From assembly GCA_019058365.1 (NCBI GenBank), contig JAHPZE010000001.1, positions 32,001 to 96,000 of the forward strand: DNA of 64,000 nt, given 5' to 3'. Source of the DNA: Promethearchaeota archaeon. Lineage in GTDB: Archaea; Asgardarchaeota; Lokiarchaeia; Sigyniarchaeales; SOKP01. The number at the start of each line of letters is the position of its first letter. The first letter of the stretch is position 1. Of the stretch, positions 20,501-60,732 are shown one piece after another. A program made the position numbers and the translations under genes. Under the pieces are notes generated by a model, which worked only from the letters and a program-made list of their open reading frames with translations, did not search any database and had not been told where the DNA came from.

Positions 20501-21462
20501 ATCCCGTTTTAAGAGTAAATAATGAGCGTGTAATCTATACCAATAAAACTGGTGAGACTTTATTTAATATTGATGAGAAAAGATTAGTCCCAAAAGTATT
20601 GGAAGAATCTATCAGTCAAGTTCTTATAAATAACGAAATTCAGGAGTTAGAACTTTTGTTAAATAGAAGAACATATACTCTAGCAATTACTCCAGTCGAA
20701 AACATGAATTATGTTAATATTTATGGAATGGATATAACAGAATGTAAAAAAGCAGAGGAGAAATTATCACATTTAATCTCAATGGTTTCGCATGAATTAA
20801 GGACACCAATCGCGGTTTTATTAATGTCAATAGAGTATATTAATCAAAATAAAAATAATCTTACTGAGGAATCAGAAAATGAGCTGATGGATGGTATCTC
20901 AAGAAACATTCGATTATTAGATAAGTTAGTAGAAGACATCTTAGTAATTTCTAGGATTGATGAAAAAAAGTTAAAATTAGATATGAAAGAATTTAGTCCC
21001 TTAGATATTATTAATGATATTCTATATCTCATGGAGCCTATAAGGACGCAAAAGAAAATAGATTTTATTGTTAATGTGGATAAAGACATTCGATTAAATG
21101 GTGATCCGAATAGAATCGATCAAGCTTTTCGAGTAATTATTGATAACGCAATAAAATATTCAAAGGAAAATTCGAAAGTGGAAATTCGGGTAATAAAAAA
21201 TTATCGAGGTAAATATAATTTAGATGATACTCCAGGAGTCCTCTTTCAATTCAAAGATTCTGGGCGTGGTATACCCAAAGAAGATCAACCTAATATCTTT
21301 GAACGTTTCTTCCGCTCAAGTAATGTGAATGATGTATCTGGGACGGGATTAGGGTTAGCCATCGCTAAAGATTTAATTGAGGCTCATAAGGGAAAAATTT
21401 TTATGGAGAGCAAATTAGAGAAAGGGACAACATTTCATCTCTTTTACCCTCAAATTGAATGA
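17515..21462 (+). CDS. CheB methylesterase-CheR methyltransferase-PAS-histidine kinase fusion
   Basis: GIGASAGG, LSGTGTD, GCSTGEEAYS, CRNLLIY, EELxSxNEEL heptads, PAS domains, SHELRTP, NAIKY, GTGLGL. Confidence 0.93.
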   Translation: MFEEKRELNEKDKEESFITKVSDGLEFPIIGIGASAGGLEAFEQFFTNMPSDTGMAFVLVTHLDPTHKSILSDLIKRYTQMTVVQAEDKEYIKPNWAYIIPPNQNITIKEGKLHLTERSEFRGRRLPIDEFFRSLAEEKQEKSIGIVLSGTGTDATLGLREIKGVGGMVMVQDPKTAKYDGMPRSAIDNVIVDFILSPNDMPEYLIKYVKHLPSDIEQLEAPIKIKDTIEEIFTLLHNKVGHDFSAYKLNTLFRRIERRMTVCHITQYKDYIQYLKDYPEEIDNLFRELLIGVTNFFRDKEAFKSFNEQAIPKLFENKNLKDAVRIWILGCSTGEEAYSIAMLLKEKMDLLKKEIKIQIFATDIDIRAIDKARQGIFPDNIVVDVPPNLITKYFSMENGFYQIKKNIRDMIVFAVQNAITDPPFSNVNLICCRNLLIYLTAEIQKKLLLLFHYSLNHNGYLFLGNSESLNGFAKYFNVIDKKWKIFQKKEVNLIDREFPRPFPPLVDYNYKRKPLEKIKIPEKINYRDLIEQLLIEKYAPTSVIINENFNVLYIYGHTYKFLELPSGEINLNILNMARESYKIKLITGLRKLALTKKEIRFDNLKIDENGKNLLFNMILSPIVKPKTMEDLILIQFEEIYPKKDEKEKIITEKTEDISELRIKQLEMELSSTKQYLQTTIEELETSNEELKSTNEELQSSNEELQSTNEELQTSKEELQSINEELVTVNTELDAKIVEVTKTNNDMNNLLSTINVGTLFLDDNLNINRFTPPTSNIFNLIQTDIGRPISDISSNLEYKDIVENAKKVLKTLIPFEIDVKNINNTWYTMRIVPYRTADNKIEGIVISFIDITNRKLMEEKLRLNSNILTHLSEGVALIRVDDGKVVYTNPTFEEMFGYKPGEIIGEYGSIITAPTDKSPDEINEEIMGILLKLGEWHGELMNIRKNGTTFWCYVNISLFNDPEYGKVIVSIHSDITEKKEKDNEIQNLAKFPSEDPNPVLRVNNERVIYTNKTGETLFNIDEKRLVPKVLEESISQVLINNEIQELELLLNRRTYTLAITPVENMNYVNIYGMDITECKKAEEKLSHLISMVSHELRTPIAVLLMSIEYINQNKNNLTEESENELMDGISRNIRLLDKLVEDILVISRIDEKKLKLDMKEFSPLDIINDILYLMEPIRTQKKIDFIVNVDKDIRLNGDPNRIDQAFRVIIDNAIKYSKENSKVEIRVIKNYRGKYNLDDTPGVLFQFKDSGRGIPKEDQPNIFERFFRSSNVNDVSGTGLGLAIAKDLIEAHKGKIFMESKLEKGTTFHLFYPQIE

Positions 21463-23255: not shown

Positions 23256-24896
23256 TTATCCTTCAAATTTTTTCCCATCAGTGTAATTTCTTGGATCTGA
23301 AGCATTATTTGGATCAAATTCGTATTTGATTGCTTTCATCCACGTGTGGTAATTACATGTAATCGGTCCAAATAGATCGCATTGATGTACGCTTCCTTCC
23401 ATATCCCCTATGCCCAAACCAATTCCGAGAGGATTTATCTTATTTGCCTCTATTACCGAATTAAGGTAATGAGTCGCAGCTTTACGAGAAGTTTCGTCTG
23501 TAATATCATACATAAATAACTCTTCTAAATGAGAAAACGTTCCCCCTTCATAAGGATTCCCCCAAACATTATCTGCTCCATCATCAACTAATCCCCCAAA
23601 ATCAATCGCTTTTTGTTTTAATCTCTCTCCGATTTTAGCGCCTTCAACGCACCAATCCCAGCTTCCCAGAGCGCCTAAAGATGTATGAAAACCTCCGCCT
23701 GCTCTAAATACTCCTCTCGTTGTATTGCATTGCCTTACTATTGCCATAAAAGCTAATGCTTTCATCGGCTTAAGCTGTGTAATGGGATTATATTCGCCAT
23801 TTGTTTTTTCGACTATATGATTCAACACTTTTTGCCGGTATTCGAATTCTTTTTCATTATCAGCCACAATAATTATCATCAATTCGTGGCCTCCTCTATG
23901 GGCTAAATCTTGAAAAATCTTTTCCGTATACATTGTAGTATTATTGGGAGCAGCAGCCAAGGCTAGATCGAAACCTTGTATTCTACAGAGACCCCAACAT
24001 ATTTCTGAATAGGCTAATAAGTATCCTGCATCCTTGAAATCTTCCCAATCGTCCCAAATAATGTGAAAAGCCTCGCAATTATCTGGCATCTTATTTTTAA
24101 CTAAACTGTAATTTGGAGAGCGACCTTGAATTTTCAGTACCTTTGGTCCTGGCCAATCGTAAAGTTTTATGGCCGCCTTTGTAAAAATACCCATACCTCC
24201 AAATGCTCCAAAATAACCTCTATATACTCCGCGTATGCTTGGTCCTGGACCGTCAGCAAAAAACCATTCAGAAGCGTCAATTTCTTTATTATGATCCTCA
24301 GCGCCCTCAAACGAACCCCAAGAACCTATCCTGCACACAATGCCTTCGGGCATGACCCATTCTGCTCCGACAATATTTCTATTAGAAAATCCTGTTGAAA
24401 TTCCGGTCCAACCTTGCCCACACATACTTGTGACCGTAACTAATTGGGATCCATTCGCACCACATCCAGCAATGTGACAGTTTAAACCTAATTTAAAAAG
24501 TTCCGTTTGAAGCTGACCGCTAATTACGTAAGGTTCAACCACTGCAATCATATTTTTTGTATCTACATCTAAAATTTTATTCATTCTTCGACAGTCTAAT
24601 ATTATCACCTTGTTCTCCTGTCCGGCACAATTATGAGCTCCCCAACCAGTACTTTGTGCTTTAAATTGCAACCCATTTTCGTTGCAGTATTTTACAATTT
24701 TCACGATTTCGTCTGTAGTAGAAGGTAAAACAACGCATATCGGACGATTCGTAAATTTAGATTTTCCCTCAGTCGCAAGATCTGCAAGATATTGATATGC
24801 ATAGTTGTCTAATAAGTAGTCATCAGAATTAGCAAATTTATTACCTACAATACTTTGCATTGCGATTAAAACTTCATTTCTATCTATTCTACTCAT
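23256..24896 (-). CDS. FAD-binding oxidoreductase (VAO/PCMH, GlcD-like)
   Basis: VVLPSTTDEI, STGWG, ILDCRRMNKI, VVEP, GGMGIFTKA, FDPNN. Confidence 0.85.
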   Translation of the reverse strand: MSRIDRNEVLIAMQSIVGNKFANSDDYLLDNYAYQYLADLATEGKSKFTNRPICVVLPSTTDEIVKIVKYCNENGLQFKAQSTGWGAHNCAGQENKVIILDCRRMNKILDVDTKNMIAVVEPYVISGQLQTELFKLGLNCHIAGCGANGSQLVTVTSMCGQGWTGISTGFSNRNIVGAEWVMPEGIVCRIGSWGSFEGAEDHNKEIDASEWFFADGPGPSIRGVYRGYFGAFGGMGIFTKAAIKLYDWPGPKVLKIQGRSPNYSLVKNKMPDNCEAFHIIWDDWEDFKDAGYLLAYSEICWGLCRIQGFDLALAAAPNNTTMYTEKIFQDLAHRGGHELMIIIVADNEKEFEYRQKVLNHIVEKTNGEYNPITQLKPMKALAFMAIVRQCNTTRGVFRAGGGFHTSLGALGSWDWCVEGAKIGERLKQKAIDFGGLVDDGADNVWGNPYEGGTFSHLEELFMYDITDETSRKAATHYLNSVIEANKINPLGIGLGIGDMEGSVHQCDLFGPITCNYHTWMKAIKYEFDPNNASDPRNYTDGKKFEG

Positions 24897-26236
24897 TTTT
24901 TCATCAACTCCAATACTAATTGATTGATATCTCTATATTGAAGATCTTTCCCCATGTCTGAGATTGCATCTTCAAAATTAGTTTTACAAAATGGACAGGC
25001 ACTAACTATAAATTTCTCAGTATCTCTTTCTTTTGAAGCTTTTTTTAGAACAAATTCCGCCTCTTCAAGACGATTTTTTGCCGTAAGTATTGCCATTTCT
25101 GGATATGCCGCTTTCACACCGCCTCCTGAGCCGCAACAGTAAGTATACTCATTAATTCGAAACATTTCAACGAACTCTATTGCTTTTTTCATTCTTTTAA
25201 ATATCTCTCTTGGAACATCATAAACACCTTTAGCTCCTCGTCTATAAATTTTCGGCGGATCATATATAGTAATTTGATTGTACACTTTCTTTTTAGTTCC
25301 CTTCCATTCAGAAACATATGGTTCGGCACCTCTTCCTAAATGACATGGATCATGATAGGTTATTATCGGTTTTTTCTCCGTTTCATCAAATAGGATCTTC
25401 TTTTTCCGAATAGCTTCTTCAATTATTTCAACCATATGACGGAATTTGATTTTTTTCCACAACTTAATGTGGTCTTCATCTAATTGATGGGGATATTCTG
25501 CTACAAACATGGCATAACATCCAGGACACGCAGTTATTACTTCTTCGACTCCTAATCTATTGAACAACTCGATATTAGATTGCATGTATTTTTTAGAAGT
25601 TTCTACTTGACCAGATCTATAAATTGGAGAACCGCAGCAAATTTCGTCTTTAGAGACCTGGAACTCATAATCAATAGCATTTAGTATTTCCACACTAGCT
25701 TGGGCCATATCTTGCTGCCGATATGAAGCGGTACATCCCGTAAAAAATAATGTTTTTGAATTTGGATTTGATTTGGCGCCCGTCTTGCCGATCCAATCTT
25801 GTCGATTCTCATGGGGTTCGCCGTAAGGATTATTGTATTTCTCAGCAGCATCTGCGTATTTTCTATGAGAAGGATGAGGACCAATCCTCTCAACTATATA
25901 TCTTCTTACATCGAAAATGGTATCAAGAACTTCTAGGTCCGTAGAGTATTTGCAGGATGTATCACATGCCCCACATAGAGTGCATTGTAATACAGCATCC
26001 CTCATAGCCTCCGTAACTGCTATTCTATCATAATAAAGAGATGCTCCTACTACAATTTTTCCACCGCCAGACCAAGGGTGAAAATAGCCATAATCCATAG
26101 AGCAGCATACCGAGGAAAATTCGGCGGATTTTATTTGAGCCAATGGAGGCCATTTGCATAAACTACAGCGAGCACACCTCCAATATTCATCAGTATGTTT
26201 ATCTAGTAATTTTTTACTTTCTTCCATTTTTATCAC
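24893..26236 (-). CDS. Fe-S/CCG-domain oxidoreductase (GlpC/HdrD-like)
   Basis: CARCSLC, CTLCGACDTSC, EICCG, TACPGC, YHDPCHLGR, CCGSGGG, SACPFC. Confidence 0.9.
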   Translation of the reverse strand: MIKMEESKKLLDKHTDEYWRCARCSLCKWPPLAQIKSAEFSSVCCSMDYGYFHPWSGGGKIVVGASLYYDRIAVTEAMRDAVLQCTLCGACDTSCKYSTDLEVLDTIFDVRRYIVERIGPHPSHRKYADAAEKYNNPYGEPHENRQDWIGKTGAKSNPNSKTLFFTGCTASYRQQDMAQASVEILNAIDYEFQVSKDEICCGSPIYRSGQVETSKKYMQSNIELFNRLGVEEVITACPGCYAMFVAEYPHQLDEDHIKLWKKIKFRHMVEIIEEAIRKKKILFDETEKKPIITYHDPCHLGRGAEPYVSEWKGTKKKVYNQITIYDPPKIYRRGAKGVYDVPREIFKRMKKAIEFVEMFRINEYTYCCGSGGGVKAAYPEMAILTAKNRLEEAEFVLKKASKERDTEKFIVSACPFCKTNFEDAISDMGKDLQYRDINQLVLELMKK

Positions 26237-26243
26237 CTTTAGA

Positions 26244-27710
26244 TTAAAAAATTAATTGCCCTTTATTGAGAATCATGTCAGGATCAAAAATTCTTTTCAA
26301 TTTTCTCAGCCCCTCTTGAAAAACTTGATTTTTATCTGTAAAAGCTAAGTCATTTATAAGTTCATATGAACGGGAGAAAAATCCCCCATGTAAATCCGCA
26401 AATTGACCTATTTCCTTAGCTATTGCTCTAACTTTTTCAAGTGAATATTCAATTTTATTAGAATCAGGTCTATCTGATATAATTGAAAATTCTAAATTTA
26501 CAGCTCTTGCTTGAATCAAGGGTTGCATATAGATATTCACCCGGTCCATTGGAAAACTACGCTTGTTAAGAATGTTTTCGACTGCATTAAGATGAGTTTG
26601 CACTCGATCTAGGGTTGTATTATAAAATATATCTATTGCTATGGATGTTTCGGAAAACTTAGGATGTGGATCAATTGTATTGCCATCAAGAAGAGGTTCG
26701 ATCTCATTTTGGGTTATCCCTGAGATATTATCACTTGCTTCAAAGCCAAGTTCACTAAGAATTTCGTTGCAACATTCCATCTGGTAAGAGATTTTATCAT
26801 CAGGGAATAATTCATAGCCGTTTATAGCAAATATCAAAATGTATTTCTTAATATTTCCATTTATAGATGGAAAAATAGCTTTCATTAAGTTATCATTAAT
26901 GATAAAAATTTCATCAATCCATCGTTTTCTTACTGCGGAGTATATAAATTCGGTGAGTGGTTTAATTGAATCTGAATTGATAAATCTGATTTTTCTTTTA
27001 GCAGGGATAAAATCACATTGCATAGAAATCCACGATACAATACCATAAGTACCTTTAGAAGCTTGTATTATTCTAAAAATATCTGTTTGACCAGGGCCTA
27101 GGGGACTAGTTAGAGCAGCCCCAAATTTTCTATTTGTTTCGATATCCAATGGACCTGCCGCTTCTCCCGTTCTGAATATTTCTCCATTACCAAATACAAC
27201 CTCCATACATAACAATGGATCTGAAATATCCCATTGCTTTTTAGCAATTAAATGAGGTTCTCGATCTAAAACGGAAGCGAGAACTGATTTTCCTGGTCTC
27301 GGGAGAAAAGGTGCTAATGGCCTAAGACCATGCTCTTTAAGTTTGGGAATTAGTTCCGCCCATGTTACCCCTGGCTCTATAACACAAACTCTATTTCTTT
27401 TATTAATAAAAGGAACTTGTTTCATATCATGTAAATCTAAAATTATAGTTTTATCATGACAGACTGTGTCGTTTAGGAATTTAGGGGAAGTCGTGCTGCT
27501 TATAATCACTACATTAATATTAATTAAAGTTCTGAAATATTGAATTAGTTTTGATATCTGGTCAGAATTCTCTGGTAAAATACTTATAATTGGAGTATCA
27601 CTTGTTTTTTCTAATATTGGTTTACAATAAAGTTCTCTAAGTAAATCTGAATCAGTAATTACTTTTTCTTTATTGATAATTTCATATAGTTTTTCAAAAT
27701 TAATTGACAT
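26244..27710 (-). CDS. FAD-binding oxidoreductase (VAO/PCMH family), second subunit
   Basis: VIEPGVTW, EVVFGNGEIFRTG, GTYGIV, LKRIFDPDMILNKG. Confidence 0.85.
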   Translation of the reverse strand: MSINFEKLYEIINKEKVITDSDLLRELYCKPILEKTSDTPIISILPENSDQISKLIQYFRTLININVVIISSTTSPKFLNDTVCHDKTIILDLHDMKQVPFINKRNRVCVIEPGVTWAELIPKLKEHGLRPLAPFLPRPGKSVLASVLDREPHLIAKKQWDISDPLLCMEVVFGNGEIFRTGEAAGPLDIETNRKFGAALTSPLGPGQTDIFRIIQASKGTYGIVSWISMQCDFIPAKRKIRFINSDSIKPLTEFIYSAVRKRWIDEIFIINDNLMKAIFPSINGNIKKYILIFAINGYELFPDDKISYQMECCNEILSELGFEASDNISGITQNEIEPLLDGNTIDPHPKFSETSIAIDIFYNTTLDRVQTHLNAVENILNKRSFPMDRVNIYMQPLIQARAVNLEFSIISDRPDSNKIEYSLEKVRAIAKEIGQFADLHGGFFSRSYELINDLAFTDKNQVFQEGLRKLKRIFDPDMILNKGQLIF

Positions 27711-27818: not shown

Positions 27819-28706
27819 TTGTATTTAAAGATATTGGTTACAAAATTGAGCTCTAACGATTATAATGAAAGAATTATGGATTGCCTTAACCAAAATAATT
27901 TTGGAATGACAATAACACAAATTTCAGAAGAGATAAATGGTAATAGAAATACAGTTTCTAAATACCTCAATAGACTAGAATCAAAAGATATTGTGTATAA
28001 AAAGGAGATAGGAAAAGCTTGTTTATATTTCATTAAAGACATTGAGTCAAAAGTATTAAATTTTATAAATGAAAACCCATCAGGGGTTACGATAAAAGAC
28101 ATCTCATATGAATTAAAGCTAACAAGAGACTCGGTGAAAAAACATCTTATAACTCTTGAAAAACAAGATAAAATCTTTAGCACAAAATTAGGAGCATATA
28201 CACTGTTTAAAAGTTCAGAAGCGAAATTTGTGCCAAAAAAATTTATGGTTTCATTCTATAAGGCTCTCCTTAAAGATTTAAAGATAAAATTTCCGAATAA
28301 AGAAAGAATATTTAAAGAAATTGGACGTAATATGTTTGGTGATATAAAATTTCCAATAAGTAAACTAATAATAAAAAAATTGGAGGATTTTAAGACATCT
28401 CCTCTCAAACAATTACATTTTGAAGTATTCAAAGATGTATTTCCCTCTTATTATATTTTTGAACCAATCCAAATTTCAGATCCAAAAATTGACAGCTCAG
28501 GTAAGAAAGGTATTTTTAGATTGAAAAATTCAGAATTTTTAAATAATTCTGATTCTCTCTATCACTTTTATTTAATATCAGGAATGATTGAAACAAAGAT
28601 GTCAAATGATCTAGGGGTACCAATTAAATGCAATATCGAAAAAATTCACATATCAGACAAAATAGAAGATTCTTATTCAGATATTTCAATAGAGTTTAAA
28701 AATTAA
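27819..28706 (+). CDS. Transcriptional regulator with two winged-HTH domains and a C-terminal ligand-binding-like domain
   Basis: GMTITQIS...RNTVSKYL and GVTIKDIS...RDSVKKHL; divergent from FAD-oxidase operon; start uncertain. Confidence 0.8.
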   Translation: MYLKILVTKLSSNDYNERIMDCLNQNNFGMTITQISEEINGNRNTVSKYLNRLESKDIVYKKEIGKACLYFIKDIESKVLNFINENPSGVTIKDISYELKLTRDSVKKHLITLEKQDKIFSTKLGAYTLFKSSEAKFVPKKFMVSFYKALLKDLKIKFPNKERIFKEIGRNMFGDIKFPISKLIIKKLEDFKTSPLKQLHFEVFKDVFPSYYIFEPIQISDPKIDSSGKKGIFRLKNSEFLNNSDSLYHFYLISGMIETKMSNDLGVPIKCNIEKIHISDKIEDSYSDISIEFKN

Positions 28707-29089: not shown

Positions 29090-30370
29090 ATGAATGAATT
29101 GAGAAACAAACTTAAAATTACAAATAAGGCGCTAGAAGCAATAAATAAATTTCTTACTGATGATAATAATGTTATAATAAATGAATTATTTAAGGTAATT
29201 GATAAATACGGTGGAGTGAATGAAATAAATAAAAAAGCTAGAGATGCAAGAAATTTTAATAATTTACTAGAAAGACTTAGAACTAAAAAACCAGAATTTG
29301 CAGCAGATATCGAATGGTTAATCGAACAAAGAGATAATAATGCTTTTATAAGTATATCAGATTATAGGAAAAAGATCCTTGGCGACAAATTATCAGAAAT
29401 GGAATTTGATAAAGATTATGCAGTAACCTTGGAACTTTCTGCTTGTCAATATTTTCCTTTCTTTATTGATATAGCTAAAGCTGCGATTAATGATAAAAAT
29501 TTAATGCCAGGAAGAATAATTCGTGTAAGAAAAATGAAAGAACAAGAAGAAGATGGTGATCTATTAGCAATGGCCGCTGCTATGCAAGTCATTGGAGCAA
29601 CCTATGTTGAGACACTTGATACAAAAGGTACTGCTCCTGGTCCTGATGGTATGCCTGTAAATGTCCATTTAGGAGGTCCTGAAACTATTACAGGATATTT
29701 TGGAGGAGTTGGGCAACCAAATGATTTTGCTTTAAAGTGGATTGATGAATATCTTTATTATTATACTAACTATGGGATTAAGCAAGTTCTAAATGTTAAT
29801 CCTGGAACTGTTCTTTTGGGGTATTTCATGCATAAACTAGGAATTGATAACGAATTCAAAATTTCAGTATATATGGGCAATGATAATCCTTATGCGTGTC
29901 TTTGGACTTTATTAACTGCTAAATTGTTTGCTCGTGAAGATGGAACAAGTCCTTTAATTGGGTTTAATCTTGCTAATTCAATTAATAATGAAACTCTTGA
30001 ACTCTCCGCATATATTAGAAAAGATTTTGGATTTGAGGATGTTGTGAGATTCGAACATCATGTAATTGAAACTCAAAAAAGTATAGTAAGGCAACCGTAT
30101 GATAAAAGAGATGAATTAGTGGAAGTTGCTAAGAAAGTGAAAAATATTAGTGCTAAACATGAAGGTGGTGATGTGGAATTAGATAAGAATAGAGAGCATC
30201 CTTCAGATATATTGGATTATTTCAGAGATAAGCAGGAAATAATAGATTCAGGTCATTGGGAATTTATGCGAAGAAATCATCTTGATAGATATATTGCAAT
30301 AAATACCACCGCCAGGATACTGACTGAAAATGGTATTGATATTATTGCAGCTCAAAATTTACATAAATAA
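29090..30370 (+). CDS. Hypothetical soluble protein, probably an enzyme
   Basis: 426-aa ORF with motif-like segments ETLDTKGT, HLGGPETITGYFGG, EHH, KHEGG; 28 nt upstream of next gene. Confidence 0.8.
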   Translation: MNELRNKLKITNKALEAINKFLTDDNNVIINELFKVIDKYGGVNEINKKARDARNFNNLLERLRTKKPEFAADIEWLIEQRDNNAFISISDYRKKILGDKLSEMEFDKDYAVTLELSACQYFPFFIDIAKAAINDKNLMPGRIIRVRKMKEQEEDGDLLAMAAAMQVIGATYVETLDTKGTAPGPDGMPVNVHLGGPETITGYFGGVGQPNDFALKWIDEYLYYYTNYGIKQVLNVNPGTVLLGYFMHKLGIDNEFKISVYMGNDNPYACLWTLLTAKLFAREDGTSPLIGFNLANSINNETLELSAYIRKDFGFEDVVRFEHHVIETQKSIVRQPYDKRDELVEVAKKVKNISAKHEGGDVELDKNREHPSDILDYFRDKQEIIDSGHWEFMRRNHLDRYIAINTTARILTENGIDIIAAQNLHK

Positions 30371-30398: not shown

Positions 30399-31886
30399 AT
30401 GGGTAAATTCGATTTTCGGCCTTCTGGAGTTATGCCCGCAATGGTAACTCCATTTAATAAGGATGAATCAATAAATGAAGAGAACTTAAGAAATTTAGTG
30501 AATCATCTTATAGATCAAGGAGTAACTGGATTAGTTCCAGTAGGAACCACTGGAGAATTTGTTAACATGACCTTCGATGAACGATTAAAGGTGATTGAAA
30601 TTGTTGTTGATGAAGTAAATGGTAGGGTTCCTGTAATAGCAGGGACAGGAGAAACAGGAACTAAATTGGTAATTGATGCTACAAATAGTGCAACTGACAT
30701 CGGTGCTGATGCTGTATTAATAGTTACACCATATTTTTTAAAACCAAAAGCGAAAGGATTATATGATCATTATTTTACAATTGCAGAAAAAACAGATATT
30801 CCTATAGTACTGTATAATATACCTGTTTGTACAGGAGTAGAATTACCTTGGACGGTGGTGGAGGATCTCGTGGATATTGAAAATATTGTCGGAATTAAAG
30901 ATTCGAGTGGAGATTATAAATATTTTTCAGCATTACTAGAAAAGGTAAGTGATAAAATTTCAGTTCTTATCGGATGGGATGAAAATGTGTTGGGAGCTTT
31001 AGCTGGGGGTGCTGCTGGATGTATTCTAGGTTCAGCAAATGTTTTTCCTAAAATTTGGCTTGAAATATATGAACATGTGAAGAATAATCGATTACAAGAA
31101 GCTCAAGCACTTCAGAAAAAAATTCAAAAGTTAGCTAGACTTTTGATAAATTCTGGAGCTTTAGGTGCAAAATCTTGTCTAAATATGATGAAAATACCAG
31201 TAGGTAAAACCCGTCAACCCATTATTGTAGGTGATACACTTTCATATGAAATAAAGGATGAATTACGAGTCGAGCTTGAAAAGTTGGGACTAATTGAAAA
31301 AACAGAAATACAGTTTCAATTGGGAGATAAGCCACTCACAAGTCGTTTTTATGCAATTGGAATAACACCTCAGAAAATTACTGATTTTGAATTGAAAGTC
31401 GGAGAATCTCTTGTAGGTGACCGAGCAGAACTTGCCCATATTGATCTTCTAATCGGTAAAAAGAACGGACCTGTTGGAAATGCTTATGCTCAAGCTTTAA
31501 CTAATCCAGAAGAGGGACGTGAAGGGCTTCAAGTTATACTTGAGCCTAATATGCAAGTAAAGCCAGCCACAATAATGATCCCTACTATCAAACCAATATC
31601 TCTTCGCCATGCTAGTTTAACTTATGGCCCCGCTCAAGCCGCTATCGCCAAGGCAGTGATGCAATCCGTTGAAGATGGAATCCTTCCGAAAAAATTAGCA
31701 GAAGATATCGTACTAATTGTAAATGTTTTTGTTCATCCTAGTGCTAGTGCAAGAAAAAGAATATTTATCAATAATTATAAAGCAACACGTAATTCAATAA
31801 GAAAAGCAATGGAAGGATTACCAACAGTAGATGATGCTATTGAGAATGTTGAAAGCGCACGGCATCCCTTTCGGAACGATCCTTAA
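30399..31886 (+). CDS. DapA-family aldolase fused to formaldehyde-activating enzyme (Fae)
   Basis: N-terminal GTTGE, LYNIP, GIKDSSG; C-terminal (about 31390-31886) VGESLVG..AHIDLLIG..GPVG..KPAT..GPAQAAIAKAV..VFVHP..NYKAT..HPF. Confidence 0.92.
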   Translation: MGKFDFRPSGVMPAMVTPFNKDESINEENLRNLVNHLIDQGVTGLVPVGTTGEFVNMTFDERLKVIEIVVDEVNGRVPVIAGTGETGTKLVIDATNSATDIGADAVLIVTPYFLKPKAKGLYDHYFTIAEKTDIPIVLYNIPVCTGVELPWTVVEDLVDIENIVGIKDSSGDYKYFSALLEKVSDKISVLIGWDENVLGALAGGAAGCILGSANVFPKIWLEIYEHVKNNRLQEAQALQKKIQKLARLLINSGALGAKSCLNMMKIPVGKTRQPIIVGDTLSYEIKDELRVELEKLGLIEKTEIQFQLGDKPLTSRFYAIGITPQKITDFELKVGESLVGDRAELAHIDLLIGKKNGPVGNAYAQALTNPEEGREGLQVILEPNMQVKPATIMIPTIKPISLRHASLTYGPAQAAIAKAVMQSVEDGILPKKLAEDIVLIVNVFVHPSASARKRIFINNYKATRNSIRKAMEGLPTVDDAIENVESARHPFRNDP

Positions 31887-33279: not shown

Positions 33280-33765
33280 ATGACAGAACAATTAATAGAG
33301 TTAAAAGTTGGAGCAGATGCTCCTAATTTTTGTCTTCCAGATAAAGATAATAATGAAGTCTGTTTGGATGATTTTAAAGGAAAATTTATTGTACTCTACT
33401 TTTATCCAAAAGATAATACACCTGGTTGTACTACTGAAGCGATTGGATTTACGGGAATTTTACCAAAACTAGAAAAATTAGATACTGTTGTGATTGGCGT
33501 TAGTCCTGATAGTCCTGAATCTCATGCTAAGTTCATTGAAAAGAAAGATTTGAAGGTTACATTACTTAGTGATAAGGATATAAAAGTCATTAAAAAATAT
33601 GGTAAATGGGCTAAGAAGAAATTTCAAGGAAAGGAATATATGGGTGTTGTTCGAAGTACATTTTTAATCGATCCTAATGGAAAGATAGCACATATATGGT
33701 CCAAAGTTTCTGTTAATGGACATTCTGAAGAAGTCCAAAAGGTTTTAACTGAATTAAGGAAATAA
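33280..33765 (+). CDS. bcp: Peroxiredoxin Bcp/PrxQ
   Basis: LYFYPKDNTPGCTTEA, GVSPDS, RSTFLIDPNG. Confidence 0.95.
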   Translation: MTEQLIELKVGADAPNFCLPDKDNNEVCLDDFKGKFIVLYFYPKDNTPGCTTEAIGFTGILPKLEKLDTVVIGVSPDSPESHAKFIEKKDLKVTLLSDKDIKVIKKYGKWAKKKFQGKEYMGVVRSTFLIDPNGKIAHIWSKVSVNGHSEEVQKVLTELRK

Positions 33766-33811
33766 ATTTTATTTATTTTATATATACCAATTAAACTATA
33801 CATAACTTATC

Positions 33812-34396
33812 ATGGATGTTAAAGAAGCAATTAAAAATAGAAGAGCTTATCGATCACTTGATCCAGTTAATATCAAAGATGATTTAATTAAAGATTTTGT
33901 TGAAATGGTTAAAATAACACCTTCATGTGCAAATCGACAGCCTTGGAATTTTATTTTTGTAAAGGATAAAGACAAATTGGCAGAGTTATTCACTACTTTA
34001 TCAGATGGGAATAAATGGGTAGAGAAGGCTTCAATGATTATTGCTGTTTTTAGTAGACCTGAAAATGATTGCATCATCAAAGAACGTCTTTATTATTTAT
34101 TTGACACAGGAATGGCAACTGCTTTTTTGATTTTACGAGCTACTGAGTTAGGTCTAATTGCTCATCCTATAGCAGGATTCAGAGAAGATGAAGCAAAAGC
34201 CATCCTAAAGATCCCTGAAGAATTTAGGCTTATTACACTAGTAATTATTGGAAAACATTCCGAAACCATTAATCCAGTTCTCTCTGAATCAATGAAATTA
34301 GGAGAAAAACAACGACCACCCCGCAAAAAATCAGAAGATTTTATATTTTTAAATAGTTATAAAAATAAATTTCTTGAAATTGAAGGGGAAGCATGA
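33812..34396 (+). CDS. Nitroreductase family protein
   Basis: AIKNRRAYR, PSCANRQPW, LRATELGL. Confidence 0.9.
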   Translation: MDVKEAIKNRRAYRSLDPVNIKDDLIKDFVEMVKITPSCANRQPWNFIFVKDKDKLAELFTTLSDGNKWVEKASMIIAVFSRPENDCIIKERLYYLFDTGMATAFLILRATELGLIAHPIAGFREDEAKAILKIPEEFRLITLVIIGKHSETINPVLSESMKLGEKQRPPRKKSEDFIFLNSYKNKFLEIEGEA

Positions 34397-37268: not shown

Positions 37269-39266
37269 TTACAATCTGTCTGTGATTATTGAATAAATTT
37301 GTTCAGCAGTAAATCCTTTTATATCAATTGCAGAACATCTACAATTACCTGAACAAGCACCACACCCTTTACAGAGAGCTTCATTAATTTTAGCTACAGT
37401 ACCGAACCTTCGGTCATCAACAAGTTCAATCGCCCCGTAAGCACAATTTTCGACACACATACCACATCCAATGCATCTTTCAGGTCGAACAACACCAAAA
37501 AAAGGTTCTACTTCAACTTCTCCCTTAGCCATTAAGACAGCAGCACTTGAAGCTGCTCCTTTAGCTTGAGCTACAGCATCAGGTATATCCTTTGGTCCTT
37601 GAGCAACTCCAGCAATAAAAATCCCATCTGTTAAAGTGTCAACAGGCCTTAATTTTGGATGGGCTTCTAAAAAGAATCCATCAGCAGATCTTTGAATTCT
37701 TAACAGAGAAGTTATTATATCTGCATCCGCGCGCGGTTCTAATCCACAAGATAATATGAATAAGTCAACTTTTAATTCAATTGGTTGCTGAAGTAAGGTA
37801 TCTTCAGATCGAATAATGATATTATGATCTTCATCTTCGGTAACTTCTGCGATTCTGCCCCTCATATAACTAATTCCATAATTTCGACCAGCAGATTCGT
37901 AAAATTCCTCATATCCTTTTCCAAAAGCTCGAATATCCATATAGAAAATATATACATCAGCATCAGGATGTTTTTCTTTATATTGTCTTGCTTGTTTTGT
38001 AGCATACATACAGCAAACTCTAGAGCAATATTGATTACCTCCTTCTCTAAAATTCCTACTTCCGACACATTGCAAGAAAGCGATGCTGTGTGGTTCTTTT
38101 AAATCAGAAGGTCTCACTGGTTTTCCTGTAACTGGTCCGAAAGAACTTAATAAACGTTCCATTTGAAGTCCCGTAATAACATTTGGATATATTCCATATC
38201 CATATTGCTTTAACTCTGTTGGGTCATATAAGTCCCATCCAGTTGTTACTATAATTGTTCCTACTTTGACTTTCAGATATTCTGGTTTGTCATCATAAAT
38301 AATTGCTTCTGGTTCACATACATCAATTCTTGCACAAATTCCACATTTAATACAGTTATCCATATCTATTGTATATTGTCCAGGAATAGCTTGGGGAAAT
38401 GGAATATATATTGCTTTTCGTGTAGCTAATCCTAATTCGAATTCATTACCTACAGTCACAGGGCAATAATCAACACACACTCCACATCCAGTACATTTTT
38501 CTTGATCTACATAATGAGGTTTTTTTAATATTGTGACTTCAAAATTCCCTATATACCCAGACACTTCTGTTACTTCAGAATATGTTAAGAGTTCTATGTT
38601 TTTTTCTCGTGATATTTCAGACATTTTTGGAGTAAGGATACAACTTGAACAATCCATGGTTGGAAATGTTTTATCCAGTTGAGCCATATGACCTCCAATT
38701 GTAGGGGTTTTTTCCACTAAATATATTTTGTATCCCTCTGCAGCAAGATCTAAAGCCGCATTCATACCTGCAATTCCTGCTCCAATTATCAAACAAGATG
38801 GTTCTACTTTTACTTTCTGTACTTCAAGAGGGACTAATTCTCTTGATTTTGCTACTGCCATCCTAATATGATCTTTAGCAGTTTCATATGCCCCTTCTGG
38901 ATCTTTCATATGAACCCATGTTGAGTGTTCTCTAATGTTTGCCATCTCAAACAGAAATGGATTTAATCCTGCTTCTTTACAAGCAATTCTAAAAGTAGGT
39001 TCATGCATTCTCGGAGAACATGCTGCAACTATTACTCTATTTACTAATCCCGCTTCAATATCTTCTTTAATCATTTTTTGACCTACATCAGAACAAAAGA
39101 ATTTATATTCCCGCGCAATTTCTACATTTGGAAGATTTTTGGCATATTCTACTAGATCTGGGACCGAAACTATTCCACCAATGTTTATTCCGCAATGGCA
39201 AACATAAACACCAATCCTAGGTCTTTCATTGCCAGTAATCTCAATTTCTTTTTTCGTTTCTGTCAT
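37269..39266 (-). CDS. hdrA: Heterodisulfide reductase subunit A (Cys form)
   Basis: CHCGINI, AACSPRMHE, GAGIAG, DKTFPTMDCSSCILTP, QCVGSR, YCSRVCC, HPKLRP. Confidence 0.96.
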   Translation of the reverse strand: MTETKKEIEITGNERPRIGVYVCHCGINIGGIVSVPDLVEYAKNLPNVEIAREYKFFCSDVGQKMIKEDIEAGLVNRVIVAACSPRMHEPTFRIACKEAGLNPFLFEMANIREHSTWVHMKDPEGAYETAKDHIRMAVAKSRELVPLEVQKVKVEPSCLIIGAGIAGMNAALDLAAEGYKIYLVEKTPTIGGHMAQLDKTFPTMDCSSCILTPKMSEISREKNIELLTYSEVTEVSGYIGNFEVTILKKPHYVDQEKCTGCGVCVDYCPVTVGNEFELGLATRKAIYIPFPQAIPGQYTIDMDNCIKCGICARIDVCEPEAIIYDDKPEYLKVKVGTIIVTTGWDLYDPTELKQYGYGIYPNVITGLQMERLLSSFGPVTGKPVRPSDLKEPHSIAFLQCVGSRNFREGGNQYCSRVCCMYATKQARQYKEKHPDADVYIFYMDIRAFGKGYEEFYESAGRNYGISYMRGRIAEVTEDEDHNIIIRSEDTLLQQPIELKVDLFILSCGLEPRADADIITSLLRIQRSADGFFLEAHPKLRPVDTLTDGIFIAGVAQGPKDIPDAVAQAKGAASSAAVLMAKGEVEVEPFFGVVRPERCIGCGMCVENCAYGAIELVDDRRFGTVAKINEALCKGCGACSGNCRCSAIDIKGFTAEQIYSIITDRL

Positions 39267-39276
39267 TTTTTTACTC

Positions 39277-40227
39277 CTAAATCAATTGTTCTTTAACTAT
39301 TTTTAGAAATGAGTCATAAGGTATAGATGGAGTAACTCCTTGCAATTCATGATTTTTAACTAAACCTAATAAGTTAGGATCCATTCCAAATGCAACTCCT
39401 AAGAGTTGAGTAATATATATTACAGGTATATGAAATGGTTCTCCGATTATGTCAGCATAGAAGTTATTTACCTCAATTTGACCAATATCTAGTTGGAGTT
39501 CACAGAATGGGCAGCAATTAATAATGATATCTACCCCAGCATCTCTCATATTTACTAATTTCTCTCGGGTAAAATCTGCAGCAACTTCTCTAACAGCAGT
39601 TCTAACAGCTCCACCAGCACCACAGCACATATATTTATCTTTATAGTTTATACTTTTAGCTCCAGTCAATTCAACAATTTCATCAAGAAATTTTGGAGCT
39701 TCATATTCACCATTCCAAGGTCTTTTATCACTTGGTTTTACAATATGGCACCCGTAATGTACAGCTACTTTTAAATCTGAAAATGTAAGTTTAATATAAT
39801 CTTTTAAATAATCTAATCCCATATCAAGATATAATGCTTGAACAACATGTTTTGGTTCGAGATTACCTTTATATGTACGCCCAATTTTGGCTAAATATTC
39901 ATTTACTTCTTTCTTTAATTCGTATTCATGTTCAAGTTCATACCAAGCATCTCTTAGAGTCCCGTAGCAGCCATTACATCCTGTAAGTGGACTTACTCCT
40001 AGTTCTTCCGCAATAGAAATATTTCTTGCCGCAATAACTAACCAAGTTGGAATATGAAATGCTCTAAAAACACCAGGAGCCGGACAACATGACGCACCGG
40101 GCAAATCTAAAAGTTCAGCATCAAGATGGTCGAAAACGCTTCTAATTGAGGCTTCAATCATAGGATAACGATTAGGAATTACGCAACCTAAAAAGAACCC
40201 ATATCTCCATTTATAGTCTTTACTCAT
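39277..40227 (-). CDS. hdrB: Heterodisulfide reductase subunit B
   Basis: FLGC, SCCP, CNGC, HYGCH, CCGAGG, CPFC (two CCG domains). Confidence 0.93.
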   Translation of the reverse strand: MSKDYKWRYGFFLGCVIPNRYPMIEASIRSVFDHLDAELLDLPGASCCPAPGVFRAFHIPTWLVIAARNISIAEELGVSPLTGCNGCYGTLRDAWYELEHEYELKKEVNEYLAKIGRTYKGNLEPKHVVQALYLDMGLDYLKDYIKLTFSDLKVAVHYGCHIVKPSDKRPWNGEYEAPKFLDEIVELTGAKSINYKDKYMCCGAGGAVRTAVREVAADFTREKLVNMRDAGVDIIINCCPFCELQLDIGQIEVNNFYADIIGEPFHIPVIYITQLLGVAFGMDPNLLGLVKNHELQGVTPSIPYDSFLKIVKEQLI

Positions 40228-40239
40228 ATTTATTCATCC

Positions 40240-40833
40240 TTATTTTTTTTCTTCTGCTTTTGCTCTCTCTTTTTTCAATTTTGCAGCATTATCCAATAAT
40301 TTTTTAAATCCAACAGCATTCATTAATTCTTGACATTCCTTCAAAGCTTCAGGATAAGAATGAACTGTTGGTGGTAATGGTGGTAATCCATACGATTCTC
40401 TTAAGTCTCTCCATCTTTTATTTGCTTCTCCATTTGCGGGTACACCATGGCCAGTAGCATAGAATATATCATTAGCTAACCCAAAATGTGAATCCAATAT
40501 AAATCCTTCTTCCACAGCGATATTTCTAAGCTTTATAATCAAATCGGTTACTGGAATATTACGAGGGCATCTTTCATAACAATAATAACAAGTTGAACAC
40601 ATCCAAATATCAATGTCTTGTAAAACAGATTCGTCACCTGTTAATGCACGACGGAGAGCAGAACGAGTCCTATATGCTGTTCGACGTCCACTTGGGCAAC
40701 TTCCGGTACAAGTTCCGCAATTGATACATGCTCTTATTTTTTCTAATCCCGCGTCAACAAACTTTTGTGCAATTCTAGAGTTTGTAGACTTATAGACCTT
40801 TCTTTTTATATACTTTTCTACATTTTCGCTCAT
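40240..40833 (-). CDS. hdrC: Heterodisulfide reductase subunit C
   Basis: CINCGTCTGSCPS, WMCSTCYYCYERCPR; probable start MSENVE. Confidence 0.92.
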   Translation of the reverse strand: MSENVEKYIKRKVYKSTNSRIAQKFVDAGLEKIRACINCGTCTGSCPSGRRTAYRTRSALRRALTGDESVLQDIDIWMCSTCYYCYERCPRNIPVTDLIIKLRNIAVEEGFILDSHFGLANDIFYATGHGVPANGEANKRWRDLRESYGLPPLPPTVHSYPEALKECQELMNAVGFKKLLDNAAKLKKERAKAEEKK

Positions 40834-41118
40834 TAATCTATCAAATCCCCTATGTTGTGTAAAAATTGATTTGCGATTTTGTAAAAAAACAAGGTATTTA
40901 CAATTAAGTGTTTGATCAAACAAATTGATTGATAATCTTAAGAAGGTAAAAGTATTTTTATTAAAAAAATTTGTTATCGATAATTCATAACAAAATTCAA
41001 AATAACAATTATTTCTTATATTTTACATTTTTATAAGGAGTTAAAAAAAGGAAATTTCCAATAAAGAATTGGGAATAATTAGACTAATTTTTTGAGATAA
41101 TTACTAGTTATACTTTTT

Positions 41119-44474: not shown

Positions 44475-46196
44475 TTAGGTACCGTTCATAATTTTCATGT
44501 TTGGAGTATAATACTCGCCAATTGCATAGTTATTGAAGTTTATACTATAATGGTTTCGCCAATGTGCTTTAACATCTTCTAACATTGCTTCCATAACACT
44601 TTCTTTAACTTTTCCTTCTGCGCATATAGTTTTACCTATTGGAGATGCTACAACCTCTCCATCCTTTACAACAATTTGACCGTCTTTTATTGTATAGGTT
44701 GCTAAAGTAAAAGCTTTTTCTATCGCATGTCCATCTATTTTTTTCGGATCTAAATTATATATCGCAACATCACCAATCGCTCCCCTGCCTAAATGACCTC
44801 TATCTGTCATACCTAAACATTTAGCAGTGCCTGCTCGCGTAATTGTACATATTTCACCTAATGTTAATTCACGATCGATATCTCTTAATTGAGATTTCGT
44901 ATTCGCTTTTGGAGAACATTGATTTAAAAGTATATCATCTCTTGATTTCTTATCCATAAGCCATCGAACAATCTGTGGATAGCTTGTAAATGGTCCACCA
45001 TTGGGGTGATCGGTCGTCATAAATATTTGCCAAGGATTCTTGGTAAGGAGCATAAGCTCTAATCCAACTGCCCATTGTACTGCATTCACAGCAACTTTAG
45101 GATCAAATAAATAAGGAACTATACCGGAACCAGATTCCCCTTCTACTTGACCATTTATCCATTTAATTCCAGGTTTAGAGCCCCAAGCTGAAGTGCCGCC
45201 GATATGATGGAGAGCAAATTCCCAAGGCCCGTCTGCAGTCATTGTTGTAGTTGCAGCTTTCCCAAAAATAATTTGACCCGCATCAACAGTAAGATGTTCA
45301 TGTGAATTTAAATATTCAGCTATATCAGCAGCACCAGATTCGAAATCACCCCAAGTAGTACCTCCATATGCATTAAATTGGCAGTGTGTGAGATGAAAAA
45401 CAGATTTTCTTCCTTGTTTTGGTTTAATTTTATCAACAGTCTTAAAAGTCTCAAGTGTATGCTCTTTATTTCCAGGATGTCCTAAATTGTTAGCATGGAC
45501 ATGGATAGTATGAGGTAACTTTAATATTTCATTTACTTTTGATAAGCTTTCTAAAATTTCTCTAGGTGTTACTTCAAAATGAAAAACATGATCATCCAGA
45601 GAATTAACGTTTTTACCCCAAGCCCAATTTTCGACTCCTCCAGGATTTACTATTTTCACAGCATACCCTTTGACTACCTTTAAAATCCAAGCGATGTAAG
45701 CAGCTAATTTTTCATAATTTTTTTGTTTAACATATTCCATTACAAACCAATTATTTCCGAAAAGTGGAAAAGCAGCTTTATCTATAATAGGTGTAACCAA
45801 AAATTCTTCATGAGTATGTCTTGCTTTAAGCAAAGGCATTGCGGGTTCAACGACAGTAGTATATCCTAACCTAGCATAACGATATCCTGTTGCCCATGTT
45901 GATGGCACTGACCAACCAGTTCCACTTCGAGTCAATTTAGTTCTTTTTTCATTACATTCTTCAAGTTTATCATCAGGTCGAAATGAACGTCCAGCATTCA
46001 CTTTAGTTCCTGCAATATGAGCATGTATGTCTACCCCTCCTGGCATCACAATCATTCCAGAAGCGTCAATTACTTTTGCATCCCCATTAACTTTTTCTAC
46101 GACAATCCCATCTTTAATATGGATATCTTTCTTTTCCCCGTCAATATTATTTAATGGATCGTATATTAACCCGTTTTTAATTATTAAATCCTTCAT
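44475..46196 (-). CDS. fwdA: Formylmethanofuran dehydrogenase subunit A
   Basis: GGVDIHAHIAG, KIVNPGG, HVHANNLG, TTDHPNGGPF. Confidence 0.96.
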   Translation of the reverse strand: MKDLIIKNGLIYDPLNNIDGEKKDIHIKDGIVVEKVNGDAKVIDASGMIVMPGGVDIHAHIAGTKVNAGRSFRPDDKLEECNEKRTKLTRSGTGWSVPSTWATGYRYARLGYTTVVEPAMPLLKARHTHEEFLVTPIIDKAAFPLFGNNWFVMEYVKQKNYEKLAAYIAWILKVVKGYAVKIVNPGGVENWAWGKNVNSLDDHVFHFEVTPREILESLSKVNEILKLPHTIHVHANNLGHPGNKEHTLETFKTVDKIKPKQGRKSVFHLTHCQFNAYGGTTWGDFESGAADIAEYLNSHEHLTVDAGQIIFGKAATTTMTADGPWEFALHHIGGTSAWGSKPGIKWINGQVEGESGSGIVPYLFDPKVAVNAVQWAVGLELMLLTKNPWQIFMTTDHPNGGPFTSYPQIVRWLMDKKSRDDILLNQCSPKANTKSQLRDIDRELTLGEICTITRAGTAKCLGMTDRGHLGRGAIGDVAIYNLDPKKIDGHAIEKAFTLATYTIKDGQIVVKDGEVVASPIGKTICAEGKVKESVMEAMLEDVKAHWRNHYSINFNNYAIGEYYTPNMKIMNGT

Positions 46197-54721: not shown

Positions 54722-54869
54722 TTGCTCAACTACAGGTTTTCAAAGTTAATCTAAAATCTAATTAAATAAATAATTACTATAAAAAAAACTAATATTTTAT
54801 TATGATAGTATTATTAAATTAAGCTTTTGTTATTGAACTAACTATTTAATTAAGTGAAAGTATAGTAAA

Positions 54870-55742
54870 ATGTCTCTAAAAGAAGAATTATGGGACATAC
54901 CTTATCATAAAGCATTTTTCAAGACAAGTCATAATTCATATGTACATTCTATAAGAGAACAACTAAATAAAGGAGTTAGGGGTCTTGAATACGATATACA
55001 TGACAATAAAATACAACAATTAGAAGATTTTGAAGTATATCATTTAGAAAACCACGTTGATTCACTTCTAAGCGAAAATGGCAACCCCAGTAATTTATTA
55101 CTTTCTAATTGGCTTAAAGTATTAGATGACTGGTCTAATGATCAAAATAAAGAACATGCGCCTATAACACTATTTATTGAGCTTAAAGATAACATTATTG
55201 ATTCGAATAATGAGCCCGAAGAACTTTATGGGATAAAGAAACTAAATCAAATTATAGTTAATTCATTTACCTCTGCCACCCTTTTCACGTTTAAAAATTT
55301 CCGAGAAAAAAGCTTTAAATGGCCAACAGTTAGAGAATTAAAAGGCTGTATTATTATTGTACTTGTAAGTTATTGGGGAGGATACTGGGCAGCTAATGAA
55401 GGTGGTTTCAATTCTAGGGTAAGATATATGAATAATTGCTTACAAGGTAAAGATGACATCTGTTTTGTTTCTTGGGTTCAAGAAGACCAAGGAGAAAAAT
55501 CATCTTATCTTAAAGAAAATAGTTATTTTTGGAAATGTAGCCTTGGATATAGCACCAAAAACTTTTCTCAAAATTCTGAATCCCAAAGAGTAACCCGAGC
55601 TGATTTTGATAAAATTGTATGGGGAATGCACGTTAAAACATATTATAACAAGAGTTATGAAAATGGATATCGTTGTAATTTTCCTGCTACAGATGTTTGG
55701 GGAACTGATAAATATAATAATTGTTTTCCATGGTCATTTTAA
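54870..55742 (+). CDS. PI-PLC X-domain-like phosphodiesterase
   Basis: SHNSY, QLNKGVRGLEYDIH, VYH, HAPITLFIELKD, WPTVRELKG. Confidence 0.78.
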   Translation: MSLKEELWDIPYHKAFFKTSHNSYVHSIREQLNKGVRGLEYDIHDNKIQQLEDFEVYHLENHVDSLLSENGNPSNLLLSNWLKVLDDWSNDQNKEHAPITLFIELKDNIIDSNNEPEELYGIKKLNQIIVNSFTSATLFTFKNFREKSFKWPTVRELKGCIIIVLVSYWGGYWAANEGGFNSRVRYMNNCLQGKDDICFVSWVQEDQGEKSSYLKENSYFWKCSLGYSTKNFSQNSESQRVTRADFDKIVWGMHVKTYYNKSYENGYRCNFPATDVWGTDKYNNCFPWSF

Positions 55743-56851: not shown

Positions 56852-56854
56852 CTA

Positions 56855-60729: not shown

Positions 60730-60732
60730 TAA

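Follow-up and report, generated by a model that had tools for sequence, protein, structure and literature searches.

Fusion Gene and Its Domains

An aldolase of the DHDPS family and a formaldehyde-activating enzyme (Fae) are joined in a single gene on contig JAHPZE010000001.1 of a Promethearchaeota archaeon (assembly GCA_019058365.1). The stretch analyzed here (the window) comprises 64,000 nucleotides, positions 32,001 to 96,000 of the forward strand, and has a G+C content of approximately 30%. The source genome is 4.74 Mb in 54 contigs and is rated 100% complete with 6.6% contamination. The closest relatives of the fusion protein are named as Promethearchaeota or Lokiarchaeia-type Asgard archaea. 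Residues were compared across an alignment of 163 fused aldolase-Fae sequences, and the aldolase part was aligned with DapA, NanA, and YagE of E. coli K-12 (NC_000913.3) and with the DapA of the source genome itself. The features of the gene are as follows.

30399..31886, plus strand: whole fusion gene (class I aldolase and Fae), a single uninterrupted open reading frame (ORF) of 495 aa with an ATG start and two full Pfam domains
30420..31277, plus strand: DHDPS-family (beta/alpha)8 aldolase domain, residues 8-293 (PF00701, E 5e-78; alignment with E. coli DapA, NanA, and YagE)
30813..30815, plus strand: Tyr139 codon, aligned with Tyr133 of E. coli DapA; Tyr in 161/163 fused sequences
30828..30830, plus strand: Cys144 codon, aligned with the Arg138 position of DapA
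30897..30899, plus strand: codon of the Schiff-base lysine Lys167, aligned with Lys161 of E. coli DapA; Lys in 159/163 fused sequences
31278..31397, plus strand: interdomain linker of about 40 residues between the Pfam envelopes, variable in length among relatives
31398..31871, plus strand: Fae domain, residues 334-491, with C-terminal ARHPFR tail (PF08714, TIGR03126, alignment to 1Y5Y)
31437..31439, plus strand: His347 codon in AHIDL, aligned through 1Y5Y with His22 of M. extorquens Fae; His in 145/163 fused sequences

The Fae domain spans profile positions 1-158 of 159 in PF08714 (E 4e-54; 183.5 bits, cut-off 27) and scores 186.6 bits on the NCBIfam one_C_fae model TIGR03126 (cut-off 118.05). 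A gap-free alignment pairs it with residues 6-166 of the M. extorquens Fae structure 1Y5Y, which has 169 residues (E 2.7e-32). His347 and Asp349 fall on AHIDL of that structure. We take these two residues to be catalytic in Fae. The Fae histidine and the aldolase lysine are kept together in 143/163 fused sequences. No Hps domain was found in the fusion with Pfam or NCBIfam; model NF009833 covers only the Fae part (residues 332-491), at 149 bits with a cut-off of 274. A preliminary description made from the letters of this stretch had read one ORF with an aldolase core and a full Fae domain, and each motif it named is in place: GTTGE, LYNIP (Tyr139), GIKDS (Lys167), AHIDL (His347), and YNIPVCTG. 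The substitution of cysteine for arginine that it reported in the last of these also holds, with Cys144 opposite Arg138 of E. coli DapA.

Differences from DapA

In DapA, Arg138 binds the carboxylate of aspartate semialdehyde. At this position the 163 fused sequences have Cys (141), Val (13), Leu (4), Thr (2), Tyr (2), or Ala (1), and arginine in none. The fusion shares with DapA the fold, the GTTGE motif (T50 and T51 align with Thr44 and Thr45 of E. coli DapA), the catalytic tyrosine, and the Schiff-base lysine, and pyruvate is the probable nucleophile in both. Unlike DapA, it has cysteine in place of Arg138, KDSSG rather than KEA(S/T)G, and an insertion of 3-4 residues near the C-terminus, and it belongs to a separate clade. 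The fused proteins all group in a single clade (support 0.987) when DHDPS domains are placed in a tree, and the nearest sisters of this clade also lack the arginine and share the KDSS motif. The nearest stand-alone aldolases are on short contigs, and one of them (P0132) has a ThrC-like neighbor.

The source genome has a separate true dapA (YNVPSRTG) on contig C39, with dapB directly after it. Its product scores 340.6 bits on the dapA model TIGR00674, where the fusion scores 243.5 bits with a cut-off of 206.15; the cut-off therefore admits this paralog. NanA and HpaI-like NCBIfam models also score on the fusion. A third, weak DHDPS-like match (77 bits) is on contig C39 (L005 1801-3570), in a 589-aa ORF with no NCBIfam match. 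In the window, the neighbors of the fusion are a protein of no known family and redox genes, with no lysine-pathway context. By these sequence comparisons, the aldolase domain is a Schiff-base aldolase other than DapA in which the substrate arginine of DapA has been lost.

Distribution of the Fusion

The preliminary description had set the presence of the combined architecture in relatives as a test of whether the fusion is real. More than 120 protein clusters (83-92% identity), drawn from NCBI, JGI, ENA, and Logan assemblies, have the same two domains in this arrangement, and almost all of them bear the name "4-hydroxy-tetrahydrodipicolinate synthase." An exhaustive search of 50%-identity representatives gave approximately 14 full-length fused clusters down to 35% identity. 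Some are labeled Thorarchaeota or Korarchaeota/Thermoproteota, and the fusion is also on Bathyarchaeia contigs. Presence and absence were counted with several queries in one shared sample of 301 Asgard genomes, whose families (f1, f5, f9, and so on) and genera (g2, g6, and so on) are given here by label; these genomes are phylogenetically related and hence are not independent observations, so phylogenetic profiles drawn from them overstate independence. The fusion is in 153/301 of them. An assembly error is excluded because the same architecture is found in many independent assemblies and in these 153 genomes.

Mch was used as the marker of the tetrahydromethanopterin (H4MPT) pathway and is in 206/301 genomes. 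All sampled families that carry the fusion have Mch; the counts for fusion and Mch are 45/68 and 68/68 in f1, 72/76 and 73/76 in f9, 15/19 and 18/19 in f14, 3/3 and 3/3 in f15, and 9/11 and 11/11 in f29. Approximately 80 genomes of families without Mch (f7, f16, f19, f22, f24, and others) have no fusion. Confinement to Mch-bearing families is the pattern predicted by an H4MPT-dependent Fae domain.

More distant lineages have tandem aldolase-Fae pairs, both in Asgard family f9 and on four contigs:

L010, 5528-8479: tandem aldolase-Fae pair
L011, 5715-8398: tandem aldolase-Fae pair
L012, 5544-8449: tandem aldolase-Fae pair
L135, 6070-9001: tandem aldolase-Fae pair

The first tandem copy is of a type (type B, 18/163 sequences) that has lost the Fae histidine and the C-terminal ARHPFR tail. 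The second copy is of the type that keeps both (type A, 145/163), to which the protein of the window belongs. In L012 the Schiff-base lysine and the GTTGE threonines are gone from both copies, so not every member of the family can be a working aldolase.

Partner Proteins

Directly upstream of the fusion in the window is the gene of its partner:

29090..30370, plus strand: partner gene for a 426-aa protein of no known family, 28 nt upstream of the fusion on the same strand

The 426-aa protein had no family match in Pfam (even at E 10), NCBIfam, or a PDB profile search, and the ESM Atlas gave no usable match. It is conserved at 63-93% identity across 174/301 sampled Asgard genomes and is in more than 8000 database clusters. 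Eighty species-level Asgard loci with the 426-aa gene were found, and in 61 of them the fusion begins 16-43 nt downstream. In one other (L075) the fusion is 1.56 kb downstream, and in seven the contig ends inside the aldolase domain. Families without the 426-aa protein (f14, f15, f11, f20, and f23) and Bathyarchaeia have the fusion flanked by a different unassigned protein of approximately 312 aa. The two partners are complementary in distribution, and every fusion-bearing family has one or the other. A weak collinear profile-profile match (pairwise E 2e-4; probability 39-46%) pairs positions 98-398 of the 426-aa protein with positions 25-297 of the 312-aa one, and the two are possibly homologous.

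For the 312-aa family, the ESM Atlas gave only a lead tagged "Peptidase U32." The AlphaFold2 model of the 426-aa protein, from a 30-sequence alignment, is poor (mean pLDDT 52.5); Foldseek of this model against PDB gave nothing at E <= 0.001, and the weak rows were mostly (beta/alpha)-barrels. Together with secondary-structure patterns, these weak rows suggest that the 426-aa protein may be a (beta/alpha)-barrel. Descent of the 426-aa protein from a diverged aldolase-Fae paralog was rejected (hhalign probability 0.1%). Prediction of a complex between the fusion and the 426-aa protein gave no support, which counts neither way.

Where the 426-aa gene occurs in lineages without H4MPT, no fusion adjoins it. 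In 7/11 such loci (L042, L045, L063, L068, L078, L084, and L087) the next ORFs are of the same sizes (approximately 280-413, 301-369, and 596-598 aa). In L087, which is the annotated locus, the 426-aa gene is followed by an AspAT-like class I/II aminotransferase, a homoserine dehydrogenase (HSDH; NF004912, 372.8 bits with a cut-off of 373, in a start-truncated ORF), and an aldehyde:ferredoxin oxidoreductase (AOR). Oligopeptide-type ABC transporter genes are often upstream of the 426-aa gene in these loci. In family f9 an ECF-transporter S component precedes the 426-aa gene, and a 491-aa PALP+PadR (ThrC-like) protein is nearby. Homoserine and threonine metabolism is the theme that recurs in the other neighborhoods of the partner.

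Complementarity with Homoserine Dehydrogenase

The presence of HSDH was scored with PF00742 across the shared sample of 301 genomes. The complete source genome has no match, while 14/14 control genomes were positive. Across the families, HSDH and the fusion are distributed as follows.

f9: HSDH 3/76, fusion 72/76
f14: HSDH 0/19, fusion 15/19
f15: HSDH 0/3, fusion 3/3
f29: HSDH 0/11, fusion 9/11
f23: HSDH 0/3, fusion 2/3
f7: HSDH 20/28, fusion 0/28
f24: HSDH 17/21, fusion 0/21

The last two families have the reverse of the pattern in the first five. HSDH is likewise in f5 (4/4), f10 (5/5), f21 (5/6), and f16 (7/11), and none of these four families has the fusion. Within f1, all genera that lack the fusion (g2, g6, g7, g8, and g9) have HSDH. 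A hand count of f1 genomes gave 16 with both, 30 with the fusion only, 19 with HSDH only, and 4 with neither. The complementarity between fusion and HSDH is strong but not perfect.

The steps on either side of HSDH were also sought in the source genome. Aspartate-semialdehyde dehydrogenase (Asd) is present, and the best ThrC-like match (158.8 bits) is in a 489-aa open frame. No ThrB was found above noise in this genome (best 34.7 bits, cut-off 168).

Proposed Function

In Fae-Hps, the established precedent, Fae shares one polypeptide with an enzyme whose reaction liberates or consumes formaldehyde. The window's fusion would resemble it in that Fae is joined to a formaldehyde-releasing or -consuming enzyme, from which the aldehyde may pass to or from H4MPT. 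In Fae-Hps the Fae part is N-terminal and its partner is Hps, which has the orotidine monophosphate decarboxylase fold and acts on sugar phosphates, whereas in the fusion Fae is C-terminal and joined to a Schiff-base 2-oxo-acid aldolase of the DHDPS family. The source genome has the H4MPT one-carbon (C1) pathway, including Mch (E 8e-106), FwdA, and a canonical Fae-Hps (L001; NF009833, 522.8 bits).

The presence of an intact Fae domain on the same chain suggests that the aldol reaction, with a 2-oxo acid as substrate, is linked to formaldehyde. For a Schiff-base pyruvate aldolase joined to Fae, the simplest case would be the condensation of pyruvate and formaldehyde to 4-hydroxy-2-oxobutanoate (HOB). 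Formaldehyde-linked aldol chemistry had been suggested in the preliminary description, and it gains indirect support from the missing arginine, the kept lysine and tyrosine, the restriction to Mch-bearing families, and the neighbors of the partner, which include HSDH and an aminotransferase. We therefore propose, with middling confidence, that the fusion is an H4MPT-coupled pyruvate/formaldehyde aldolase that interconverts HOB and probably works in the biosynthetic direction, towards homoserine.

The Fae domain would interconvert methylene-H4MPT with formaldehyde and H4MPT. The aldolase domain would join formaldehyde to the pyruvate enamine on Lys167 to give HOB, or would run in reverse. As in Fae-Hps, the toxic aldehyde may be handed from one site to the other within a single protein. 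Synthesis is the most likely direction, in which HOB would be transaminated to homoserine for threonine and methionine in place of the missing HSDH. More speculatively, the upstream 426-aa protein, working with the fusion, may supply the step between HOB or homoserine and the ThrC-like enzyme. The complementarity with HSDH, the presence of Asd and a ThrC-like protein in a genome without HSDH, and the neighbors of the partner make the biosynthetic direction the best reading. We extend this proposal only tentatively to archaea more broadly: Asgard, Bathyarchaeia, and Korarchaeota-type lineages may have a natural H4MPT-coupled route from pyruvate and C1 units to homoserine, threonine, and methionine that uses the fusion and its barrel-like partner and dispenses with HSDH.

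Several observations weigh against an HOB aldolase that replaces HSDH. HSDH is also in 23/153 fusion-bearing genomes, a few genomes have neither, and the related genomes in this comparison are not independent observations. No dedicated aminotransferase adjoins the fusion in this window. The Schiff-base lysine is lost in both L012 paralogs and the Fae histidine is absent in 18/163 sequences, which leaves some members unable to carry out both reactions. The substrate may also be a different 2-oxo acid or a different aldehyde. Fae is a homopentamer that binds H4MPT at the interfaces of its subunits, and its combination with a class I aldolase raises a question of symmetry.

Alternative Functions

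The same chemistry could run in the catabolic direction, as the preliminary description had it: HOB, from homoserine or a C4 sugar acid, would be cleaved to pyruvate and formaldehyde, and the formaldehyde would be captured on H4MPT and then oxidized or used for acetyl-CoA synthesis. The Fae-Hps precedent, in which a formaldehyde-releasing enzyme is fused to Fae and which the source genome matches with NF009833, is in its favor, as are the oligopeptide-type ABC and ECF S-component transporter genes that flank the partner in other lineages. Asgard archaea have also been described as amino-acid fermenters (PMC11291895). However, complementarity with HSDH is the pattern expected when a biosynthetic enzyme is replaced and fits synthesis of HOB better, and no HOB-forming catabolic enzyme was identified beside the fusion. 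The preliminary description had further linked oxidation of the captured formaldehyde to Fwd encoded in the window. FwdA is indeed present, but it is 12.6 kb away on the other strand, which does not support a link to the fusion, and no other Fwd subunit was identified in the window:

44475..46196, minus strand: FwdA (TIGR03121, 778 bits, cut-off 392.75), context only, unlinked to the fusion

The catabolic direction is not supported by these data, and we consider it unlikely, though a serious alternative.

Enzymes of the DHDPS family cleave many 2-oxo acids, and a substrate unrelated to formaldehyde, such as a 2-keto-3-deoxy acid of the 2-keto-3-deoxygluconate (KDG), HOGA, or sialate type, would leave Fae as an independent domain or mainly as an oligomerization scaffold. 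The scores of the NanA and HpaI-like models are consistent with this, as are the degenerate Fae site in some members, the dead aldolase site in L012, and the use of Fae as a pentameric scaffold in the solved structure 8ub7. Against it, the fusion is kept across Asgard, Bathyarchaeia, and Korarchaeota-type contigs and is restricted to H4MPT-bearing families, and the Fae histidine and aldolase lysine are jointly conserved in the great majority of sequences. We regard such a substrate as rather doubtful.

A step in cofactor metabolism, for H4MPT or another pterin or vitamin precursor, or formation of ketopantoate from 2-oxoisovalerate and a C1 unit, is improbable. Fae binds H4MPT, the partner is behind an ECF vitamin-type S component in f9, and both genes are very strongly conserved (the partner at the identities given above). 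However, the source genome has a normal PanB (370 bits), and the idea of a ketopantoate synthase was set aside on that ground. Many complete H4MPT-bearing relatives (f1 genera g2 and g6; f5, f17, and f21) lack the module, which is therefore not needed to make H4MPT.

The name given by NCBI and JGI, which would make the fusion a 4-hydroxy-tetrahydrodipicolinate synthase (DapA) with an appended Fae, has the score above the TIGR00674 cut-off behind it but is scarcely credible with cysteine at the Arg138 position and arginine in none of the homologs, a score approximately 100 bits below that of the true DapA from the dapA-dapB operon of the same genome, and a clade sister to other DHDPS-like proteins without the arginine.

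Other Genes Around the Fusion

The remaining genes of the window include several redox and regulatory groups. Upstream, the minus-strand genes and a regulator are divergent from each other:

17515-21462, plus strand: 1315-aa protein with CheB methylesterase, CheR methyltransferase, and PAS domains and a histidine kinase
23256-27710, minus strand: three genes with FAD_binding_4, CCG, and FAD_binding_4 domains, GlcD/GlcF-like and far below the glcD cut-off
27819-28706: double winged-helix regulator gene, before the partner gene and divergent from the preceding three
33280-34396, plus strand: peroxiredoxin (AhpC/TSA) and small nitroreductase-family gene, just downstream of the fusion
37269-40923 (minus strand), 52316-57907 (minus strand), and 59413-62040 (plus strand): HdrA/B/C-like genes, maturation genes HypF, HypD, and HypE, [NiFe] hydrogenase small and large subunits, then ferredoxin and CCG-domain genes

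The Hdr, Hyp, and [NiFe] hydrogenase genes fit the redox metabolism expected in a Lokiarchaeon that cycles hydrogen. A nitroreductase-family gene also adjoins the 312-aa partner in Atabeyarchaeia-type loci (L119, L120, and L130), and a peroxiredoxin recurs in L006-L008. An ArgE/DapE-family M20 deacylase is 1-2 genes from the fusion in f14 and f9 (L117 5562-6890; L121 12603-13721).

Related Reactions and Significance

PanB (ketopantoate hydroxymethyltransferase) takes its C1 unit from a methylene-pterin and attaches it to a 2-oxo acid at C3. It is the closest natural analog of the overall reaction proposed for the fusion, and differs from it in having another fold, in depending on a metal, and in being a single domain that uses methylene-tetrahydrofolate directly. 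The source genome encodes its own PanB in addition to the fusion. In the engineered homoserine cycle, pyruvate and formaldehyde are condensed to HOB by promiscuous use of E. coli RhmA, and HOB is then transaminated to homoserine (PMC8879981). The review of this cycle calls HOB a non-native metabolite (PMC8879981). RhmA belongs to the metal-dependent class II aldolases and uses free formaldehyde, whereas the fusion is a class I aldolase for which coupling to H4MPT, within a natural pathway, is proposed. The proposed reaction of pyruvate and C1 to a homoserine precursor is known so far only from engineered pathways. Our literature search found no paper that joins Fae with DHDPS or DapA, and a paper on wetland Asgard archaea names only Fae-Hps.

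At a minimum, the name "4-hydroxy-tetrahydrodipicolinate synthase" is wrong for thousands of database entries that bear it. If the proposed function is correct, metabolic reconstructions that count the fusion as DapA would need to be changed, and the apparent HSDH gap in these genomes would be explained. For synthetic methylotrophy, the fusion would be directly interesting as a natural aldolase that fixes formaldehyde while coupled to a carrier, and its conserved neighbor would represent a large, very conserved, and uncharacterized family of partner enzymes. The pathway would be a previously unknown route of amino-acid biosynthesis, with the engineered homoserine cycle as its artificial equivalent. 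Asgard archaea are the closest known relatives of eukaryotes, and in many of them part of the carbon of threonine and methionine would come from the Wood-Ljungdahl C1 pool and pyruvate instead of aspartate.

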